A stretch of 64,000 nucleotides of DNA from Heterodontus francisci (Eukaryota), in the NCBI RefSeq assembly GCF_036365525.1, contig NC_090399.1, positions 60,048,430 to 60,112,429 of the forward strand, read 5' to 3'. The notes below the pieces were generated by a model, which was not told where the DNA came from, searched no databases, and saw only the letters and a list, made by a program, of their open reading frames with translations. Below, piece after piece: positions 5,478 to 59,945 of this stretch. The translations under genes and the position numbers were made by a program. How positions within the stretch are numbered: position 1 is the stretch's first letter; every line of letters begins with the position of its first letter.

Positions 5478-7300
5478 GCACGAGCTGGACGAAAAGCCAA
5501 CAAAATCGGAACTCAGTGATGCCATTGATTCTCTAGCCAGTGGAAAAGCCCCTGGGAAGGACGGCATTACTCCTGAAATAATCAAGAGTGCCAAGCCTGC
5601 TATACTCTCAGCACTCAACGAACTGCTTTGCCTGTGCTGGGATGAGGGAGCAGTACCACAGGACATGCGCAATGCCAACATCATCACCCTCTATTAGAAC
5701 AAGGGTGACCGCGGTGACTGCAACAACTACCGTGGAATCTCCCTGCTCAGCATAGTGGGGAAGGTCTTCGCTCGAGTTGCTTTAAACAGACTCCAGAAGC
5801 TGTCTGAGCGCATCTACCCTGAGGCACAGTGTGGCTTTCGAGCAGAGAGACCTACCATGGACATGATGTTCTCCCTTCGCCAGCTGCAGGAGAAATGCCG
5901 TGAACAACAGATGCCCCTCTACGTTGCTTTCATAGATCTCACCAAAGCCTTTGACCTCGTCAGCAGACGTGGTCTCTTCAGACTACTAGAAAAGATTGGA
6001 TGTCCACCAAAGCTACTAAGTATCATCACCTCATTCCATGACAATATGAAAGGCACAATTCAACATAGCAGCGCCTCATCAGACCCCTTTCCTATCCTGA
6101 GTGGCGTGAAACAGGGCTGTGTTTTCGCACTTACACTGTTTGGGATCTTCTTCTCCCTGCTGCTCTCACATGCATTCAAATCTTCAGAAGAAGGAATTTT
6201 CCTCCACACAAGATCAGATGGCAGGTTGTTCAACCTTGCCCGTCTAAGAGCGAAGACCAAAGTACGGAAAGTCCTCATCAAGGAACTCCTCTTTGCTGAC
6301 GATGCTGCATTAACATCCCACAATGAAGTGTGTCTGCAGAGTCTCATCGACAGGATTACGGCTGCCTGCAACAAATTTGGCCTAAACATCAGCCTCAAGA
6401 AAATGAACATCATGGGACAGGATGTCAGAAATGCTCCATCCATCAATATCGATGACCACGCTCTGGAAGTGGTTCAAGACTTTACCTACCTAGGCTCAAC
6501 TATCACCAGTAACCTGTCTCTCGATGCAGAAATCAACAAGCACATGGGAAAGGCTTCCACTGCTATGTCCAGACTGGCCAAGAGATTGTGGGAAAATGGC
6601 GCACTGACATGGAACACAAAAGTCCGAGTGTATGAAGCCTGTGTCCTCAGTACCTTGCTCTACGGCAGCGAGGCCTGGACAACGTATGTCAGCCAAAAGC
6701 GACGTCTCAATTCATTCCATCTTCGCTGCCTCCAGAGTATCCTTGGCATCAGGTGGCAGGACCGTATCTCCAACACAGAAGTCCTCGAGACGGCCAACAT
6801 GCCCAGCATATACACCCTACTGAGCCAGCGGCGCTTGAGATGGCTTGGCCATGTGAGCCACATGGAAGATGGCAGGATCCCCAAAGACACATTGTACAGC
6901 GAGCTCGCCACTGGTATCAGACCCGCCGGCCGTCCATGTCACCGCTTTAAAGACGTTTCAAAACGCGACATGAAGTATTGTGACATTGATTACAAGTTGT
7001 GGGAGTCTGTTACCCGTGATCGCCAGAGCTGGCAGACAGCCATAAAGGCGGGGCTAAAGAGTGGCGAGTCGAAGAGACTTAGCAATTGGCAGGAAAAAAG
7101 AAAAACGCAAGGGGAGAGCCAACTGTGTAACAGCCCCGACAACCAATTTTATCTGCAGCGCCTGTGGAAGAGTCTGTCACTCTAGAATTGGCCTTTTAGC
7201 CACACCAGGCGTTGCTTCACAAACCACTGACCACCTCCAGGCACTTACCCATTGTCTCTCAAAACAAAGAGGCCAAATAAGAAAAAAGAAGAAGAATGAA
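5478..7300 (+). mobile_element. RTE-clade LINE, 5' truncated, RT domain almost intact
   Basis: KAPGKDGI ... NYRGISLLSIVGK, QCGFR, FIDLTKAFD, GVKQGC, LLFADDA, FTYLGS, RLRWLGHV; one in-frame TAG at 5695; Cys/His C-terminus in a shifted frame; (GAA)n-like tail near 7280-7300. Confidence 0.93.
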
Positions 7301-7306
7301 GAAATC

Positions 7307-7917
7307 TGTATGATTTTTGTGTGTTTGTGCTGGATGTAACTCGCTTTTAACCAACCAGGTTCTTTCTCTGTATTCTTAAGTCAAGATAGTGAGTTCATTA
7401 AGCACAGCAAGGATTTGCAAACAATTCTAAACCAATGGCAGTAGTTAAACAGCAGAGTGCCCTCAGTTTGGCTTCCCGAGCTGTTGTGGTGAAGTCTTCT
7501 CTCTTGAGGTGTTCTGTTGACTGCAGGATGGTCTTTTCTCAAATCTGTGTGTGCTGATGTCTCTCAGCACCTTTCATTTATACCCGCACCCTGATCCTCC
7601 GACGGTTCCTTCATTCCATATTAGGTTACATTCCACCTGAACCCTTTCGATTGATCAGGTATGGCCTCAACTTTCATACATTGTCTCTGAAGATAGCTTG
7701 ATGGCCTAAGTCATTGTCACACAATGGGGAATGTTTGCTATCCCCATCAACATTCCAGTCATGAATAGTCTCCGAACACCTTTATTTACATTTCCATCAT
7801 GAGGCCGACAAGTCTATCAATTATTGTGACCCTGAGCCTGTCTTAATTGAAATGCAGTAAGGTACTTATCAAAACATCCTGCCTCATAGCAAAGTCACTT
7901 CTGTTATTGTTGTTACA
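7307..7917 (-). mobile_element. 3' LTR of endogenous retrovirus 1 (611 bp)
   Basis: Termini TGTA...TACA; minus-strand TATA (GGGTATAAAT near 7576-7585); purine tract just upstream on the minus strand (7924-7943); 7307-7545 is a diverged direct repeat of 13540-13785. Confidence 0.8.
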
Positions 7918-8229
7918 GTTAAACCGTCTTCCACCATCTCTCCAATACAGCGTACAAATATACATTTCACATAACAACATGATTCCAAACATGAGGTCCA
8001 TAACTTAATTCTAATATAATACATTGATACATATACAAAGGATAACTATTCCTGAACATAACCACAATATTATTTCAAATTATTCTACTTTAAAACATAG
8101 CACCTCATGTGAATTGTATCAGGCCACAACTCGCACAGATTCATCCAACAGATTAAATATGGCAGTTGTTAACCCCTTAGTTCCTACAGTGCCCACCGTG
8201 AGGGTAAAATACCAGATGGCATTGATCCC

Positions 8230-9002
8230 TCATACATTACCCTTAAGTGGGGCATATTCTTTCATGGTCTCCTGTCTAATTCTCATTTTCTTTCTCATCC
8301 CCATGATTTGTCTTAACGCACACACCAAAATCAAATTATCACCTATTGAACGATTACAAAGACATGGGAAATAATCCTGATCCAAGGGGGTATTTCAATG
8401 TCACACCAGTGACTCTCATCCCCTATCTCAGGGATTTCCTTATTAATTTCCTCATTTTATTGTTGCAGGACATAAAAGTGTTTGTTGGATGTATTGAGTC
8501 TTTGCAATAGCTCAGTCAGATGTTCAGGAAAAGGGGGAATGCCATAAACAAATCTACTGACATATTGATATAACTGCTCCTTGAGGTCATCTTTAACAGT
8601 GATATTTATTTGCTGATTATTCCTTATACTGAATAGGACCTTGTTTACTATCTGAGCCCTTAGAGAGGGACTAAAACAAAATTCTCCCTTATTTATTTGA
8701 CACATTAAACTGCCATATGTATACTCTGTGTGGGTAGTAACAACACAATAACTTCCCTCACCTTGGTAGACAGAGTGATTGGGAAACTCCTCTCCACTCA
8801 CTATTTCCATTGCACAGTTGAGGGGATCTTTGTTCCAGGTTAATCCACATGCTGGAGCAGAGTTTTCTATAATATCATATGGGCAAACAAAGGCATCCTC
8901 TGACTGGAGACACCCAGACAAGTCAGGGGCAACCCAGGTGGTTTCATTGACCAGGGAGATATAAATAGGTGGATTTTTGCATCTAACAATGTGATTCCTC
9001 AT
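8230..9002 (-). pseudogene. env: ERV1 env remnant (Cys-rich ectodomain, heptad repeat, TM anchor), resembling class I fusion proteins of the paramyxovirus F type
   Basis: ORF 8457-9002 (PDLSGC..x..FVCP, C..NCAMEIVSG, YC) is followed, through stops and frameshifts, by NEEINKEI and a TM-like WIRIISHVFVIVQ*VI/LILVCAL with a basic tail RKKMR. It lies just inside the 3' LTR. Confidence 0.72.
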
Positions 9003-9249
9003 TATTATCTGTTCCTTAACAACTGTTGCAGTAATTCAAGATTCCCAAGATCAATTCTTTATTCTTTTGCTGAAGCTTGTTAATTCTAAATGATTGTCCT
9101 GTTCTCAGTACTTTTGTTTCAAGTAACAGATCAGGCATGGACTTGAATGATTCTCCAGCTCTCTCTTTACCATATCCATCATGTGGATCATTCCTAGCCC
9201 TTCAACTGTCTCTCTGAACTTTCATCTTACTACTTCTGCCCATTTCCAG

Positions 9250-9488
9250 TGTGTTTAATTCTATTCTAATTGTTTTAAAGTCAGTTACTCTATGGAATAT
9301 GTGACAATGCCTTGACAATTTAAAACATGTTTCACTCTATTGGCCACGTTAACCATTCCCTGTGGAGTAGGTGAACCTGTCTGAGACCTGTTCTTCAGTG
9401 CATTGCATTGTGCATTCTGCATGTTAGTTTAGCCGTAACACATCACATTTGCACACTTACACCAGTGTCCCAATATCATGTCACACAT
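9250..9488 (-). pseudogene. Possible ERV1 protease remnant
   Basis: Minus strand at ~9450-9488 reads CDMIL-DTGVSV if one extra G is removed, similar to the retropepsin DTG motif. The rest is too decayed to confirm. Confidence 0.3.
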
Positions 9489-9824
9489 GGGTGACACAGT
9501 GGCGCAGTGGTTAGCACCACAGCCCAGCCTCACAGCTCCAGCGACCCGGGTTCAGTTCTGGGTACTGCCTGTGCGGAGTTTGCAAGTTCTCCTTGTGTCT
9601 GTGTGGGTTTCCGCCGGGTGCTCCGGTTTCTTCCCACAGCCAAAGACTTGCAGGTTGATTAGTAAATTGCCCCTCGTGTAGGTAGGTGGTAGGAGAATGG
9701 TGGGGATGTGGTAGAGAATATAGGGTTAATGTAAGATTAGTATAAATGGGTGGTTGTTGGTCGGCACAGACTCGGTGTGCCCAAGGGCCTGTTTCAGTGC
9801 TGTATCTCTGAATAAATAAATAAA
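9489..9824 (+). mobile_element. HE1-type tRNA-derived SINE inserted in ERV1
   Basis: A box TGGCGCAGTGG, B-box-like GGGTTCAGTTC, V-domain-like GTGTGGGTTTCCGCCGGGTGCTCCGGTTTC, CR1-type tail gggcctgtttcagtgctgtatctct and (AATA)n end. Confidence 0.9.
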
Positions 9825-11180
9825 TTCCTGACTCTCTGGTGATCTTAACACAAGATGAAAAAGGGGAGGTGGTGGGAAGGTGTCTCGAGAGCCTTGTTCA
9901 TCTCCCCCTGCATGGTCTGAATGCTTTGGGTAGTGGCCAGAATGTCAATCAGTTCTCTTAAAAAACAACGTAGGCAAGGACACAAATCTCCAAGGGAAAG
10001 CTTTCAATTTATAATTCTTAACTACACTTTCCTAACTCTTACTGGAAAATTCTGGACTTCCTGGAAATTATGCACATTAGTTTGAATTCTGATTCTGCCA
10101 TTTTTTGTCCCTAACATTCCTTTATTAGCTCTCGCACCAGCCAGATTTTTATTTCGAATTCTCATTAATTATAATTCTCTTTTATTTCTGAGCCCTGGAG
10201 AACCTCTACAGTCCATTACCCACCTGTCTTTAAAACAGGCATCAGACAGACCCTTAATCACTATCTCACTGTCGTGGTAGCCCTCACCTACACAACACCT
10301 TACCCAGTAACAGTTTACCAGCAGGCATAAGTGTAGTTTATTTTTTGAAAATTAAAATTTTGTTTATCCCAATTTGTTTTATCAATTCCTATTTTAGAAA
10401 TAATTATCCCCAGGCTTGGTGGTTTTAAATGGTGCTTTTATATCAGACAAAAGTGCTTGCATGTGTTTAGAGGCGACCTTCACATTTCTTGTTCATTCTA
10501 TGATTTCTTGCTGTTCTTGCTATACCAGCATCACCTCTTTAACAAAAACAGAGAATCCATTTAGTTCTGGTTAGGATCCCAATGGGTTATGATGTCGAAT
10601 CATATTTGTTAATTTATCAACTTAAAATTTCATAATGCCCATATACTGCATATAAATCTTCAATGAACTAAAGGTTGTGCAGTGAGCTAAGCTGCTGGCG
10701 GAGGGGGTTAACTCTCTGCTGCTTTGAACAAAAACTCGCAGATGGACCCTTGATGTTATCATCACCCTCCTTTCAAAAAAAAATAAAATAACAAAGGCAT
10801 TGCCATGTGCTTTGGCTAGTTTGAACTGGGTTTTTTTTCACAAAGTAAATACCTGAATTTTTCCTATGAGACTGTTCTTTTATTTCAAACTCTTGTGATA
10901 TCTTTTCTTTCCCCCTAAAACTTGCTCAGATTTCAGAACATTATGCTCACTTTATTTGCTCCAACATTCCAAGCCCTCTCTTTTTTTAAACCTAGAAACA
11001 AATGCATTTGATGATTAGACAAACCAATTCAACCTGTTTTCTTCTGAACAAAGAAAGGCTTTTTAAACTTTTACTGAATTCCTTTTCCCAACTATTTCAG
11101 AGCAAGAACTCCAATGATTCCCAAAAAGAAACTTTTAACTTTTGTGAAAATGTCTCTAACCTAAGAACAACTCGACATTC

Positions 11181-11322
11181 ATTATCTGATGAAAGGTCAC
11201 TGACCTGAAACCATGAACTCTGCTTCTCTCTCCATAGATGCTGCCAGACCTGCTGAGTATTTCCAGCACGTTCTGTTTTTATTTCAGATTTCCAGCATCC
11301 GCAGTATTTTGCTTTTATTTAT
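11181..11322 (+). mobile_element. Penelope-like terminal-repeat fragment with a degenerate minimal hammerhead ribozyme
   Basis: CTGATGA (11186-11192), hairpin AGGTCA-C-TGACCT, GAAA (11207-11210), then gatgctgccagacctgctgagtatttccagca typical of shark PLE repeats. Stem I and stem III appear mutated. Confidence 0.65.
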
Positions 11323-12599
11323 TATTAATCATAAACGCTTCAAACAACCCAAAATGCAATTTACACTGTCTAACATTAAAACCATCCCATTCTAACATGT
11401 GTGGATTTGTATCGGAATAAAATTCTCACGTTTTATCATCAGAACTAGAATGTCACTGTGAGCACCAATGAATTTCACAACTTAAAATGGTTTACTTTAT
11501 TAATTCCCCATCCCTTTAGACTGCTTATAATTCTCATATTTAACACAAAGTGCCAAATCTATCGCAGATTGCGAGTTCTATGGATAATTAAAAAATAATT
11601 ATTACAAATGCACACACACATGAAACAGACAATTTAAAACAAGTTGCACTCCAGACCAGAAAGGGTTAAACAGCTTTCAGTTCACTGCAGTGAAGAGGAC
11701 ACACAAAAAACATTCAAACAAAAGAATCGCGCACAAACCCAAACTGAGAAAAGGTCTTTCATTCAGAAATTCGGAAGCTTCCTCTCACATACACTGCAGC
11801 CACTCTGGGTCTTTTCAACTTTAATAACTTAAACCTACTTATCAACTAAACACAGAACAGAATAAACACATACTTTTCCTTTAAAAGGGAAAAGAAGAAA
11901 ATAAATTACATCACTTGTCTTCTTTCTTCAGGTACCTTTTATAAATGCTGCAATAACTAAAGATTTAATTCCACAAACCAAAAGGAAGCATTCAACATTA
12001 ATAGCCCAAAAAGAAAATCACCCAGCAAACCTTTTGCAGCCTGTTAAGCAGGGCTTTCAGTCACAGGGAGATTCTTAAAGGGACAGAACACGACAACTTC
12101 ACATCTTCCGTTCTCCTTCATTTCAACAGAACTTATCCTTTTCTTGTTTAACCCAACATTGATACAAATGTATGCAGTACACACATTAAACAAGCAATAA
12201 CTTGAAAACAGCATGCAAAACTGGACTAAAGAGGGTTAATTAATCTACATTTCAGTGATACAGGACACTGAGCACACACACATACAGAATCACACAGACA
12301 GGAGTTACTCTTGGTTTAAATGTCTCGACACAGGAGCTGAGCTGGATAGCTGAGCAGTGACAGTTTCAACTTGAACTTCTTATCACGACCAATCCGGTCG
12401 CTCACACACCGTCCTAACCTTTACGGTGGGCTATCATAATTTCTTTTCCTTTTATCCATTCTTCCTCATGGGCAATCTATTTCAAGTTCCAAAATTCTCA
12501 ATTCACACTAAGTCCCCATTTCAACAGTGCCTATCTCATGGACACAGGCTTGGAAATCACTTGGGCTCAGGGGCTGGGATCGGGAGATAGTTCCTGTCT

Positions 12600-13304
12600 G
12601 CTGTCCCGCTTGATTTAAAATCTTCAAAACCACATTAACAGGAAGATTAGGGGGAGGAGATCCCACAGGTCTTCACCCAAGTGGTCCTTGGAGATTTTCT
12701 CCCTGAATGAACCCCACTCTACCTCTGAGGAATCAGCATATTCTGGATCATATAGGGGCTCTGTGTTGTGTTGTGTTTCTTTATAGGGTGACAGCAGACA
12801 CATGTGCTCGCTGTTTCCCCAACTTACTCTCTAACTTCCTGATTTTAAGATGGCACTGTCAGTGATCTGTCTCCCAGTGGGTCTGCTGAAGGGCTTCCCT
12901 CAGAGCACCACGTGAGTCTTCGAACTGCTGGCTGAGTTTTTTATTCTCGCTTAGTATTTTCAAGGGACTGCATAGCACTCTCTGCCTGTACAGCAGTCAC
13001 ACTCTGCTGCTGCATTACTGCTGATGTACTCACCAGCTGTTGCTGTAATGTATCAATCTGACCCCTATGGTCCTGGACTAATTTGTCCTTTTTCTGGACT
13101 AACTGGTCATCAGTCTGTGCGCGATATGATGCCACGTAAGAGATAAGCTTGAAGGCTCGATCTACATTCAACTTCCTTTCATTAACCTGTTCCTGAATAA
13201 ACTTAACTATATCCTCATTCTGCAAGCAGGACCTGTAAGACCTTTATTTTAACATTCTTATCCAGCTTGGCTTGAAAAGACTTCAACACGGGTTTGTCGG
13301 TCAT
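12600..13304 (-). pseudogene. gag: ERV1 gag N-terminal coiled-coil remnant
   Basis: ORF 12941-13225 is Gln/Leu-rich heptad sequence; after a frameshift it continues KKLSQQFEDSRGALREALQQTHWETDH*QCHLKIRKLESKL. It follows the LTR and PBS-like site. Confidence 0.65.
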
Positions 13305-13517
13305 GCTTATGCTTTTGAAAGACAACAGCTACTGGCAATCAATACAATGATCTCTCCCTCCGATCGTTCCCTCCGATCTCATGCCAACACCTGCCCTCCA
13401 CCACCACCCCCTCCCCCCGTCATGGGTTCCTCCTCCTAGATCAAACGCTGGTCAGGCAACTGACTAAGAGACTCGAACTCAACAATGACCAGGAGTCTGG
13501 TTTTAACTAGTCACCTT

Positions 13518-13537
13518 GTCCTTTCTGTGGAGTGCCA
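13518..13537 (-). promoter_or_regulatory. Primer-binding-site-like sequence of ERV1
   Basis: Minus strand TGGCACTCCACAGAAAGGAC starts 2 nt after the LTR end (…TACA AT TGG…). It loosely resembles a tRNA-Lys PBS; tRNA identity uncertain. Confidence 0.55.
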
Positions 13538-13539
13538 AT

Positions 13540-13800
13540 TGTAAGATTTTAGTGTGTTTAAGTAGGATGTTGATGAGCCTTTGACCCACAAGGTACAGAC
13601 TCTGGTTTCTTAATCAAGATAGAGATTTTATTAAGTACAATAATAATATACAAGCAATACTTAACCAACAGCAGTAGTTGTGCAGCAGGATATAGGGTGT
13701 CCTTGGTCCTTGCTTCCCGAGCTGCTGTGACACCGTCTTCTTTCTTGAGGTGTTCTGTTGAGTGGAGGTTGGTCTATTCTTGAATAGGTGCATTCCGAGT
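13540..13800 (-). mobile_element. 5' LTR of ERV1 (R/U5 portion only; U3 side lost at the satellite boundary)
   Basis: Aligns by eye with 7307-7545 (e.g. gcttcccgagctg, tcttgaggtgttctgttga); minus-strand AATAAA near 13628-13633. Confidence 0.78.
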
Positions 13801-14077
13801 TGTCCCAGAACCTCCCCTGATCTCTCTCTCCAATCTCACACTGACCTCCTTCCAATCTCTCCCTCCGATTGCTCCCTCCAATCTCTCCTTCCAATTTCAC
13901 CCCTATCCTCCCTCTGATCTCTCCCTCCAATCTCACTCCAACCTCCCTCCAATCTCTCCCTCCAGTCTCCCCTAAACCTCCTTCGAATCTCTCCCTCCAG
14001 TCTCCCTCTAATCTCTCCCTTCGATCTGTCCCTGACCCCTTCCAAACTCTTCTTTGGATCACTCCCTGACCTGCCTC

Positions 14078-55134: not shown

Positions 55135-58090
55135 TGAGGATTTGGGGTTCATCTCCTGATGTCCCTCTGTCGCTCTCTGTGGCCTTGATGTTTTGGGGTT
55201 CATGCCCTGATGTCTCTCTCTCTCTCTCTCTGTGGTGTTGGTGTTTTGGGGTTCATGCCCTGATGTCTCTCTCTCTCTCTCTCTCTCTCTGGGGTTGATG
55301 TTTTGGGGTTCATGCCCTGATGTCTCTCTCTCTCTCTCTCTCTCTCTGGGGTTGGTGTTTTGGGGTTCATGCCCTGATGTCTCTCTCTCTCTCTCTCTCT
55401 CTGTGGTGTTGGTGTTTTGGGGTTCATGCCCTGATGTCTCTCTCTCTCTCTCTCTCTCTCTGGGGTTGGTGTTTTGGGGTTCATGCCCTGATCTCTCTCT
55501 CTCTCTCTCTCTCTCTCTGGGGTTGGTGTTTTGGGGTTCATGCCCTGATGTCTCTCTCTCTCTCTCTCTCTGTGGGGTTGTTGTTTTGGGGTTCATGCCC
55601 TGATGTCTCTCTCTCTCTCTCTGGGGTTGGTGTTTTGGGGTTCATGCCCTGATGTCTCTCTCTCTCTCTGTGGGGTTGATGTTTTGGGGTTCATGCCCTG
55701 ATGTCTCTCTCTCTCTCTCTGTGGGGTTGTTGTTTTGGGGTTCATGCCCTGATGTCTCTCTCTCTCTCTCTGGGGTTGGTGTTTTGGGGTTCATGCCCTG
55801 ATGTCTCTCTCTCTCTCTCTGTGGGGTTGATGTTTTGGGGTTCATGCCCTGATCTCTCTCTCTCTCTCTCTCTGTGGGGTTGATGTTTTGGGGTTCATGC
55901 CCTGATGTCTTTCTCTCTCTCTCTTTGTGCGTTTGGTGTTTCAGCGTTCATGCCCTGATGTCTTTCTCTCTCTGTGGGGTTGTTGATTTGGGGTTCATGC
56001 CCTGATGTCTCTCTCTCTCTCTCTCTCTCTGTGGGGTTGTTGTTTTGGGGTTCATGCCCTGATGTCTCTCTCTCTGTGGGGTTGATGTTTTGGGGTTCAT
56101 GCCCTGATGTCTCTCTTTCTCTGTGGGGTTGGTGTTTTGGGGTTCATGCCCTGATGTCTCTCTCTCTCTCTCTGTGGGGTTGATGTTTTGGGGTTCATGC
56201 CCTGATGTCTCTCTCTCTGTGGGGTTGTTGTTTTGGGGTTCATGCCCTGATGTCTCTCTTTCTCTGTGGGGTTGATGTTTTGGGGTTCATGCCCTGCTGT
56301 CTCTCTCTCTCTGTGGGGTTGGTGATTTGGGGTTCATGCCCTGATGTCTCTCTTTCTCTGTGGGGTTGGTATTTTGGGGTTCATGCCCTGATGTCTTTCT
56401 CTCTCTCTCTTTGTGGGGTTGGTGTTTTGGGGTTCATGCCCTGATGTGTCTCTCTGTGCGGTTGATGTTTTGGGGTTCATGCCCTGATGTCTTTCTCTCT
56501 CTCTCTCTGTGGGGTTGGTGATTTGGGGTTCATGCCCTGATGTCTCTCTTTCTCTGTGGGGTTGGTATTTTGGGGTTCATGCCCTGATGTCTTTCTCTCT
56601 CTGTGGGGTTGATGTTTTGGGGTTCATGCCCTGATGTCTCTCTCTCTCTCTCTGTGGGGTTGGTGTTTTAGGGTTCATGCCCTGATGTCTCTCTCTCTTT
56701 CTCTCTGTGGGGTTGATGTTTTGGGGTTCATGCCCTGATGTCTCTCTCTCTCTCTCTCACTCTCTGTGGTGTTGATGATTTGGGGTTCATGCCCTGATGT
56801 CTCTCTCTGTGAGGTTGGTGTTTTGGGGTTCATGCCCTGATGTCTCTCTCTCTCTCTCTCTGTTGGGTTTGTGTTTTGGGGTTCATGCCCTGATGTCTCT
56901 CTCTCTCTCTCTCTCGCTCTGTGGGGTTGTGTTTTGGGGTTCATGCCCTGATGTCTCTCTCTGTGGTGTTGATGTTTTGAGGTTGATGCCCTGATGTCTC
57001 TCTCTCTCTCTCTCTCTCTCTCTGTGAGGTTGGTGTTTTGGGGTTCATGCCCTGATGTCTCTCTCTCTCTCTCTCTGTTGGGTTTGTGTTTTGGGGTTTA
57101 TGCCCTGATGTCTCTCTCTTTCTCTCTCTGTTGGGTTTGTGTTTTGGGGTTTATGCCCTGATGTCTCTCTCTGTGGTGTTGATGATTTGAGGTTGATGCC
57201 CTGATGTCTCTCTCTCTCTCTCTGTTGGGTTTGTGTTTTGGGGTTCATGCCCTGATGTCTCTCTCTCTGTGGGGCTGTTGATTTGGGGTTCATGCCCTGA
57301 GCTCTCTCTCTGTGCAGTTGGTGTTTTAGCGTTGATGCCCTGATGTCTTTCTATCTCTGTGGGGTTGATGTTTTGGGGTTGATGCCCTGATGTCTCTCTC
57401 TCTCTCTCTCTCTCTGTTGGGTTTGTGTTTTGGGGTTCATGCTCTGATGTCTCACTCGCTCTGTGGGGTTGGTGATTTGGGGTTCATGCCCTGATGTCTC
57501 TCTCTCTCTCTCTCTCTCTCTGTTGGGTTTGTGTTTTGGGGTTCATGCTCTGATGTCTCACTCGCTCTGTGGGGTTGGTGTTTTGGGGTTCATGCCCTGA
57601 TGTCTCTCTCTCGCTCTGTGGGGTCGGTGATTTGGGGTTCATGCTCTGATGTCTCTCTCTCTCTCTCTCTCTCTCTGTGGGGTTGATGTTTTGGGGTTCA
57701 TGCCCTGATGTCTCTCTCTCTCTCTCTCTCTCTCTGTTGGGTTTGTGTTTTGGGGTTCATGCTCTGATGTCTCACTCGCTCTGTGGGGTTGGTGATTTGG
57801 GGTTGATGCCCTGATGTCTCTCTCTCTCTCTCTCTCTGTGGTGTTGATGTTTTCGTGTTCATGCCCTGATGTCTCTCTCTCTTTCTCTCTGTTGGGTTGG
57901 TGTTTTGGGGTTCATGCTCTGATGTCTCTCTCTCTCTCTCTCTGTTGGGTTTGTGTTTTGGGGTTCATGCTCTGATGTCTCACTCGCTCTGTGGGGTTGG
58001 TGATTTGGAGTTGATGCCCTGATGTCTCTCTCTCTCGCTTTCTCTCTGTTGGGTTGGTGTTTTGGGGTTCATGCCTGATGTCTTTCTGTG
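55135..58090. repeat. Compound mini/microsatellite, roughly 55-60 units, abutting the exon 2 acceptor
   Basis: Unit tgtggggttggtgttttggggttcatgccctgatgt(ct)n with variable n; the last unit ends directly in tctttctgtgtttcAG. Confidence 0.97.
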
Positions 58091-58096
58091 TTTCAG

Positions 58097-58357
58097 GATC
58101 TCACTCTCTCCGGTATTTCTACACGGCAATGACCCCGATTCCTGGTCTGCCAGAGTTTGTGGCCGTCGGTTATGTGGACGATGCTACGATTGATTACTAC
58201 GACAGCAATCTTCAGGAAGTAATCTCTCGGCAGCAGTGGATGGCGGAGAGTCAGGGCCCTGAGTACTGGGAACAGCAGACACAGATCCTGCGGAGTTCGG
58301 AGCACATTGGACAGACCAATATTCAGACCGCCTTAAACCGGACCAACCAGACGGGTG
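58097..58357 (+). CDS. MHC class I heavy chain, exon 2 (alpha1 domain), similar to the shark classical UAA type
   Basis: tttcAG|GA TCT CAC...; GSHSLRYFYTAMTPIPGLPEFVAVGYVDD...YDS...RQQWM...EYWEQQTQ...NRTNQTG|GTGAGA. 261 nt, phase 1-1, no stops; Y7, Y59, R84 and N86 equivalents present. Confidence 0.96.
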
Positions 58358-59049: not shown

Positions 59050-59945
59050 TGCCTTCATAGTGAGAGGATTCGAGTACAGAAGCAGGGATGTCTTGTTGCA
59101 ATTATACAGGGCCTTGGTGAGGCCACACCTGAAATATTGTGAGCAGTTTTGGTCTCCTTATCTGAGGAAGGATGTTCTTGCTATAGAGGGAGTGCAGCAA
59201 AGGTTTAACAGACTGATTCCTGGGATGGCGGGACTGAGGTATGAGGAAAGATTAAGTCGCTAAGGATTATATTCGCTGGAGTTCAGAAGAGTGAGGGAGA
59301 ATCTCATAGAAACCTATAAAATTCTACCAGGGCTTGAACCTTTCAGGACTGAGATGTGGAGAACTTTCTTTACCCAGAGAATGGTGAGCCTGTGGAATTC
59401 ACTACCACAGAAAGCAGTTGAGGCCAAAACATTGTATGTTTTCAAGAAGGAGTTAGATATAGCTCTTGGGTCTAAAGGGATCAAAGGGTATGGGGCGAAA
59501 GCGGGACCAGGTTACTGAGTTGGATTTAGATTTAGATTTAGAGATACAGCACTGAAACAGGCCCTTCGGCCCACCGAGTCTGTGCCGACCATTAACCACC
59601 CATTTATACTAATCCTATACATATTTCTACTACATCCCCCACCTGTCTCTATATTTCCCTACCACCTACCTATACTAGGGGCAATTTATAATGGCCAATT
59701 TACCTATCAACCTGCAAGTCTATTGGCTGTGGGAGGAAACCGGAGCACCCGGAGAAAACCCACGCAGACACAGGGAGAACTTGCAAACTTCACACAGGCA
59801 GTACCCAGAATTGAACCCAGGTCGCTGGAGCTGTGAGGCTGCGGTGCTAACCACAGCGATCAGCTATGATCATAATGAATGGTGGAGCAGGCTCGAAGGG
59901 CCGAATGTCCTACTCCTGCTCCAATTTTCTATGTTTCTATGTATG
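59050..59945 (+). mobile_element. CR1 LINE 3' fragment interrupted by a SINE
   Basis: RGFEYRSRDVLLQLYRALVRPHL.YC.QFWSPY, FFTQR.V.LWNSLP; 3' UTR resumes at ~59858 and ends tctatgtttctatgt. Confidence 0.92.
59525..59855 (-). mobile_element. HE1-type SINE, slightly 5' truncated
   Basis: Reverse complement of the family at 9489-9824, with a (TCTAAA)n tail. Confidence 0.9.

Follow-up and report, generated by a model that had tools for sequence, protein, structure and literature searches.

The remnant of a provirus on the minus strand of a 64,000-nucleotide stretch of the shark Heterodontus francisci (contig NC_090399.1, positions 60,048,430 to 60,112,429; the whole stretch is called the window below) raises the question of which kind of retrovirus it stems from, and how its envelope (Env) is related to the fusion (F) proteins of other viruses. 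In an initial annotation it was taken for an endogenous retrovirus (ERV) of the lokiretrovirus (Loki) type with a paramyxovirus-F-like Env, which could fill a gap in the host range of that lineage. With good confidence, we read it instead as a dead ERV without pol that retains long terminal repeats (LTRs), a primer-binding site (PBS) for tRNA-Arg, the beginning of gag and the rear part of an env akin to that of lokiretroviruses, and that likely descends from a virus related to snakehead retrovirus (SnRV; class III, clade Huo) whose class I fusion protein was of the F type. The F-type Env is likely not confined to lokiretroviruses.

A family without pol

The env frame of the window is open from 8460 to 9035 and Cys-rich, and is followed by a heptad repeat and a broken transmembrane (TM) segment, with stops at 8457-8459, at 8343-8345 and beyond. 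It represents only the rear 40% of env, homology to relatives beginning at about 9008. Hence, of the env with a membrane anchor that had been annotated, the Cys-rich frame, the heptad and the TM segment are present, the last of them broken, and the front is missing. The word R-N-K-R near 10185 was considered as a furin site and rejected, as the N-terminal env profile has no match at that position. In gag, the capsid and the zinc knuckle are missing; the coiled coil described earlier is indeed present (12944-13243), as the N-terminal coiled coil of Gag only and with no separate smc gene. No Pol match was obtained in the window at E 1e-4, and no protease (PR), reverse transcriptase (RT), RNase H (RH) or integrase (IN) was recognised, as the annotation of a shark ERV lacking the last three had stated. 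An Rfam search gave no match. The window copy is unable to make a fusogen or a particle.

An env search of the 6.0-Gb genome (G000) gave 158 matches, 150 of them listed, from the 150 scored of 4084 candidates. Forty dispersed env loci were fetched as stretches of 10 kb; 17 belong to the family of the window (70-85% DNA identity) and 23 are more distant. The window and 17/17 family copies lack the furin site, the fusion peptide and the first heptad, all of which occur in 20/23 of the more distant loci. Pol matches on the env strand were found in 0/18 family stretches (the 17 copies and the window) against 9/23 more distant loci, although at this length pol displaced by large insertions could be missed. 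Because all family copies have lost pol and the front of env, the deletions are older than the spread of the family. The window family is a non-autonomous, pol-less ERV family.

The truncated frames may once have been under selection, to judge from codon positions. Compared with dispersed copies, env (8300-9002) differs more at the third position than at the first and second (0.196 against 0.144/0.133, and 0.170 against 0.119/0.123), and so does gag (12941-13243) in a comparison with three copies (0.219 against 0.176/0.144); the comparisons are not independent of one another, and the signal was not seen in the env frame elsewhere, including the internal region 9009-12599. Another family with this type of Env (L083, L096-L120), younger than that of the window, was also observed, with 127 matches, mostly 80-94% identical.

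Relatives of the envelope

The window env peptide alone had no match in Pfam, the Protein Data Bank (PDB) or the ESM Atlas, nor to longer database proteins in a direct search. Compared with the long database homologues, it scored 120-274 against shuffle maxima of 49-58, and judged from these alignments it is clearly homologous to them. The link to F proteins comes through relatives, because the window peptide alone matches nothing; the Pfam and PDB searches that had been proposed as a check on it gave no support.

Named homologues of a sister Env are 90% identical in H. francisci and 50% in Hypanus sabinus, which supports a shark as host. A stingray homologue, P0026, had 36 matches among 1.8 billion proteins; 30 of these were looked up, and 25/30 came from sharks and rays, 2/30 from frogs and 3/30 from unnamed sources. 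The lineage is abundant in sharks and rays, where it covers at least nine genera, and occurs in two frogs. The full-length homologues P0033, P0026, P0037 and L042:6471-7496 carry a long N-terminal arm, which is absent from the window (in UniRef, P0033 bears the name 'Ig-like domain-containing'). Two further database proteins, P0052 and P0036, hold env pieces within host gene models (an fbxo15 isoform and a TRP-channel-like gene), possibly exonised or mis-annotated.

Among the same 1.8 billion proteins, P0026 retrieved the Loki-type Env P0057 at E 1.3e-5, scoring 156 where shuffled sequences reached 66 at most; by eye, P0057 is similar to the published Env of Loki-Bsp, and it matches Fusion_gly (PF00523) at E 4.7e-6. 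Against P0057, a profile of the whole lineage (A5) reached a probability of 98.2% over 345 columns, and a profile of the part kept in the window (A2) 84.8% at E 6.5e-6, against 0.5% for a control with Pol. These sequence comparisons show the env lineage to be homologous to the Env of lokiretroviruses, and likely related to the F proteins of pneumoviruses and paramyxoviruses (fusion proteins of the measles and respiratory syncytial virus type). Support for the latter also came from the predicted structure of the sister Env L111, for which the ten best Foldseek rows in PDB were all pneumovirus F (E 0.0065-0.023), foamy virus Env ranking 16; among viral models baculovirus F was best (E 2e-4).

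The choice of an F-type (Loki, paramyxovirus or pneumovirus) over a gamma-type Env in the initial annotation was borne out by these comparisons, which were made through the relatives. The gamma-type hallmarks, CX6CC and an immunosuppressive domain (ISD) of the CKS17 type, are absent from the window env, as had been noted, and from six long homologues, so that the lineage does not belong with gamma-type Envs; env searches gave no TLV_coat match. In an env tree (24 rows, 176 columns), the window clade had a support of 0.999 and grouped with the pol-bearing loci L040, L045 and L032 (0.776), whereas Loki Env formed a long outgroup to the shark envs.

Reverse transcriptase of the env-bearing relatives

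In env-bearing relatives from the same genome, a Gag with a coiled coil and a CCHC knuckle is followed by PR, RT, tether, RH and IN, and in autonomous relatives gag, a stop and pol lie in one frame. CCHC matches were obtained in Gag of L083, L086 and L076, and tether plus RH (dual RH) in L076, L083, L086 and P0001; the latter arrangement is not diagnostic, since all retroviruses share it. No SMC match was found with Pfam in the open reading frames scanned of these broken relatives, and no separate smc gene was seen.

In PDB, the RT of the env-bearing L086 scored 168 bits with foamy virus, 154 with murine leukaemia virus (MLV) and 113 with Ty3. It is therefore retroviral, as foamy virus and MLV outscore Ty3, and the dual RH likewise speaks against membership in Ty3/gypsy (errantiviruses), which have a single RH. 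Foamy virus heads this list because SnRV has no structure listed. Identical residues in the 107-residue RT core were counted by hand against the published alignment (PMC7947760 supplement), the counts other than those to SnRV being approximate. With SnRV, L083 shares 69 and L086 53 residues (50-64%), against about 40 and about 33 with Loki-Str (31-37%); L086 further shares about 44 with HERV-L and about 38 with simian foamy virus (about 36%). The env-linked RTs of L030, L058, L083, L086 and L094 have the palm motif of SnRV, foamy and gamma-type viruses and lack that of the Loki rows compared.

In a FastTree phylogeny of 22 RTs, from which 17 near-duplicate, short or distant rows were left out, the shark Pols grouped with 'NYNRIN-like' Pols of frog, coelacanth and ostrich (0.945), apart from gamma/epsilon-like Pols (0.99) and from gypsy rows (0.998). 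The ostrich Pol of this clade, P0008, is perhaps OVEX1. The name 'NYNRIN-like' was given to the database Pols automatically and is no phylogenetic test of a grouping of their integrase with CGIN1/NYNRIN. Viral and metagenome contigs, searched for an SnRV or Loki Pol to serve as reference, yielded no usable one: the searches gave in turn one RT match of 30%, none, and one contig with env only. Two observations on Pol relatives stand apart: close relatives often seem to be without env (17/20 fetched), and about 23 RT copies form a tandem cluster on G000:C3 (180.9-185.7 Mb) with a spacing of roughly 90 kb.

Weighing of the readings

Several points weigh against an origin from an SnRV-related virus with an F-type Env. 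As the window lacks an RT, its clade has to be read from relatives, and in env these are only 35-52% identical to it. The relatives are placed near SnRV by hand counts and by motifs; the RT tree has no real SnRV or Loki row. SnRV Env was found neither among the identified homologues (31/36) nor among 50 viral fold rows, in libraries that may not contain it. As for the F link, the window peptide alone is not significant against P0057 (score 55, reached by 1/300 shuffles), and the Pfam score of P0057 itself (25.6 bits) lies below the cut-off of 29.8. The direct link is weak: profile A4 reaches human parainfluenza virus 3 F, in the Cys-rich region, only at E 0.17, with the larger profile A5 there is no such match, and none to F in Pfam or PDB passes the threshold. 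Both structural models are of low confidence (predicted local distance difference test 55 for the fragment and 51 for L111; Foldseek root-mean-square deviation >20 A), and a search with ESM features favoured class III glycoproteins of chuviruses and rhabdoviruses, with low recognition. The Kimura two-parameter distance between the two window LTRs, 0.32 over 265 sites, exceeds the typical divergence from copy to copy, so the LTR pair may be recombinant.

Two structural attempts were set aside: the fragment model proved unusable (best Z 3.9, from helices only; foamy virus Env, at Z 2.9, too weak), and a wide search with the long model returned generic coiled coils at Z up to 8.0 and was uninformative.

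The alternative that survives best, though improbable, is a mosaic family, in which the env tail and the LTRs come from SnRV-like viruses while the 5' half comes from a different retroelement, or such an element mobilised the family. It would explain why the gag of the window and its family matches autonomous Gag N-termini weakly (E 0.002-0.016), why the 3.5-kb internal region shows no pol match and why the LTRs are only 72-75% alike; swaps between env and pol have been described as frequent in anamniote ERVs (10.1101/2021.11.23.469661). However, the PBS is for the same tRNA-Arg(CCT) as in the SnRV-like relative L076, where the match is exact (18/18), and a motif at the end of the Gag coiled coil is common to the window family, L086, L076 and L079.

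Less probable again is that the F resemblance arose by convergence, in a viral membrane protein of a generic kind with Cys-rich and heptad regions, or that the protein is a class III fusogen, as could be read from the want of a significant direct F match, from the ESM features (Monjiviricetes and rhabdovirus glycoproteins) and from the chuvirus glycoproteins at ranks 2-4 of the viral fold search. Such an origin would leave unaccounted for the furin site, the fusion peptide, the long first heptad and the second heptad before the TM segment, all class I features, as well as the colinear match to Loki Env and the pneumovirus rows in PDB.

That the element is a cartilaginous-fish lokiretrovirus is very unlikely and already largely refuted: a homologous Env, a coiled-coil Gag, tether and RH in relatives and the existence of pol-less Loki derivatives in zebrafish (BHIKHARI, 10.1101/2024.03.25.586437) would fit, but tether and RH are common to all retroviruses, the env-linked RTs lack the Loki palm motif and by eye match SnRV far better than any Loki RT of the published alignment, an outcome that the initial annotation had itself named as a refutation, and Loki env is a distant outgroup with only three weak matches in the genome, no close one having been found (in a stricter first look). 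The proposed extension of the Loki host range falls with it; SnRV-related shark ERVs had in any case been published (PMC4422223). Nor does the coiled coil carry the SMC-like link suggested for it: a Gag with a coiled coil and one zinc finger was reported for SnRV (PMC2717909), and hence coiled-coil Gag does not point to the smc gene of lokiretroviruses.

Comparison with known retroviruses

SnRV-related ERVs are already known from a cartilaginous fish, the clade including lineage I of CmiERV from the elephant shark (PMC4422223), and class III dominates chondrichthyan ERVs (PMC11089739); the frame of clade Huo and class III is given in PMC6001957, PMC12193657 and PMC11089739. The autonomous shark relatives resemble SnRV in RT and in a Gag with an N-terminal coiled coil and one CCHC knuckle, of which the window keeps the coiled coil only. 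They differ in the F-type Env, that of SnRV having a 136-residue tail (PMC12193657), and the window copy differs further in lacking pol and half of env. OVEX1/SpeV is likewise similar in an RT branch near SnRV and spumaviruses, a coiled-coil Gag and an env-like frame without CKS17 or CX6CC; it is, however, a single domesticated bird locus with a dead RT (PMC2717909).

With lokiretroviruses, the lineage shares tether and RH as well as a homologous Env of the F type, in which a furin site, a fusion peptide, heptads and a Cys-rich region occur (PMC7947760). It differs in that the shark RT is not of the Loki type, no separate smc gene was seen, the Envs are about 17-25% identical, and the shark and frog Envs carry the long extra N-terminal arm. 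Wang and Han list three Chondrichthyes as screened and none with Loki. The Loki-derived BHIKHARI elements are also pol-less, LTR-bounded and multi-copy, with a coiled-coil Gag; unlike these recent elements, which have an intact capsid Gag, the window family is old and broken, with its capsid lost and a tail of env remaining.

Foamy virus Env, which is structurally F-like (PMC11468914), and the F proteins of paramyxoviruses, pneumoviruses and baculoviruses are suggested by the fold ranking to belong to the same fusogen superfamily, the structural scores being weak. Foamy viruses differ in an Env of about 980 amino acids with an inserted receptor-binding domain (PMC11468914) and in a Gag without CCHC, which the relatives have.

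Wang and Han (PMC9040795) described Loki Env as similar to F of Mononegavirales and unlike canonical retroviral Env, and preferred an independent acquisition of env. In a 2026 preprint on errantiviruses, the F-like Env of vertebrates is still tied to Loki, and a survey of anamniote Envs (10.1101/2021.11.23.469661) covers the gamma type only. No publication pairing an SnRV-type Pol with an F-type Env was found in a search whose coverage did not extend to Repbase/Dfam and the original SnRV paper. A canonical SnRV-related lineage with an Env that can be aligned to Loki Env over 345 columns makes the origin of env a testable question: either the F-type Env is old in retroviruses, which fits the structure of foamy virus Env, or an exchange of env took place between class III viruses and Loki. 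It is conceivable, if somewhat doubtful, that the F-type Env is the ancestral retroviral envelope, kept by Loki, by foamy viruses and by the SnRV-related lineage of sharks and frogs, and that gamma- and beta-type Envs replaced it later. Were this true, the shark lineage, with a canonical Pol and a Loki-alignable Env, would be a bridging case as opposed to independent gains.

Proposed history

The history that would follow from an SnRV-related parent draws on what is known of class I fusogens and of non-autonomous LTR elements. The parent Env would have been cleaved at an R-X-K/R-R site, exposing the fusion peptide, and its two heptads would have folded into a six-helix bundle, as in paramyxovirus and pneumovirus F. 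A derivative may then have lost the capsid, pol and the front of env while keeping the signals needed in cis (LTR, PBS, leader and polypurine tract), and RT and IN of a helper could have copied it in trans. Much later, a single insertion on the chromosome carrying class I genes of the major histocompatibility complex (MHC) would have decayed and, through segmental duplication, been multiplied as a passive passenger, so that the window copy was amplified together with the MHC region.

Multiplication within the MHC class I region

Near-identical env copies (80-100%) occur in at least 52 places on C29 (54.6-63.7 Mb) and at least 16 on unplaced contigs. In the C29 array, one 3' flank is common to the 18 loci, of 20, for which the flank was compared, some with a later long interspersed element; because of this shared flank, the copies are taken to be segmental duplicates of one insertion. 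The window contains an MHC class I alpha-1 exon at 58051-58353 on the plus strand (PF00129, E 3.5e-21). Alpha-1 matches lie on C29 in 33/37 cases, nine exon copies being 99-100% identical, and for 8/9 of these near-identical exons a provirus copy lies at a distance of 33-50 kb, always in the same orientation relative to the exon. As the alpha-1 copies cluster on C29, the window lies in an expanded MHC class I region. The locus itself is a dead passenger, whose multiplication marks recent duplication in this region of the shark genome.

Terminal repeats and other features of the window

The features of the element and its surroundings are collected in Table 1. The LTR pair on the minus strand, recognised before, was confirmed: 13813-13537 aligns to 7572-7303 with 200 identities and 68 mismatches at a score of 233, whereas none of 200 shuffles scored above 40. 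The PBS-like site proved to match host tRNA-Arg(CCT). The ends had been misplaced: the LTR start was set to 8188 rather than about 7630, because four dispersed copies (L021, L023, L048 and L055) begin there after unrelated flank, and the purine tract lies at about 8199-8189, both earlier positions falling inside the LTR. A tandem-repeat array, with repeats from 13823 on, truncates the 5' LTR at 13813, and the upstream part of this LTR is lost. Dating by LTR divergence was dropped, since 0.32 corresponds to about 70 My at a mammalian rate, whereas the rate that PMC4422223 assumes for sharks would give 700 My, which is impossible.

Table 1. Coordinates of the provirus and of repeats in or beside it
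Feature	Position	Strand	Remark
Non-LTR retrotransposon RT, outside the provirus	5698..7300	+	RVT_1 E 7.9e-28; beside only some array copies
3' LTR, TG...CA, about 880 bp	7307..8188	-	start fixed by dispersed copies
Polypurine-tract position	8189..8199	-	G-rich run abutting LTR start; conserved in family copies
env remnant (Cys-rich beta region, second heptad, TM segment)	8313..9008	-	front half of env absent
AT-rich internal region (3.5 kb) without pol	9009..12599	-	common to dispersed family copies at 70-81%
Insertion resembling a short interspersed element (SINE)	9482..9824		missing from family copies, where 9824 joins 9488
Short interspersed repeat inserted in the element	11185..11325		matches many unrelated loci, both orientations
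gag remnant, N-terminal coiled coil only, frameshifted	12600..13304 (end approximate)	-	longest open piece 12944-13243
PBS for tRNA-Arg(CCT), decayed	13518..13537	-	15/18 letters and a 2-base insertion against host tRNA 3' end
5' LTR stump (LTR 3' end only)	13540..13813	-	aligns to 3' LTR at about 72-75%

An inverted copy of the SINE-like insertion was found at 59524-59846. In the dispersed copy L031, a piece of the 5' LTR (L031:7893-8067) is inverted relative to the remainder of the copy. The window also holds two minisatellites, an array of 37-bp units from 14074 to about 36900 (about 570 units) and one of 33-bp units from 37069 to about 47200 (about 300 units).

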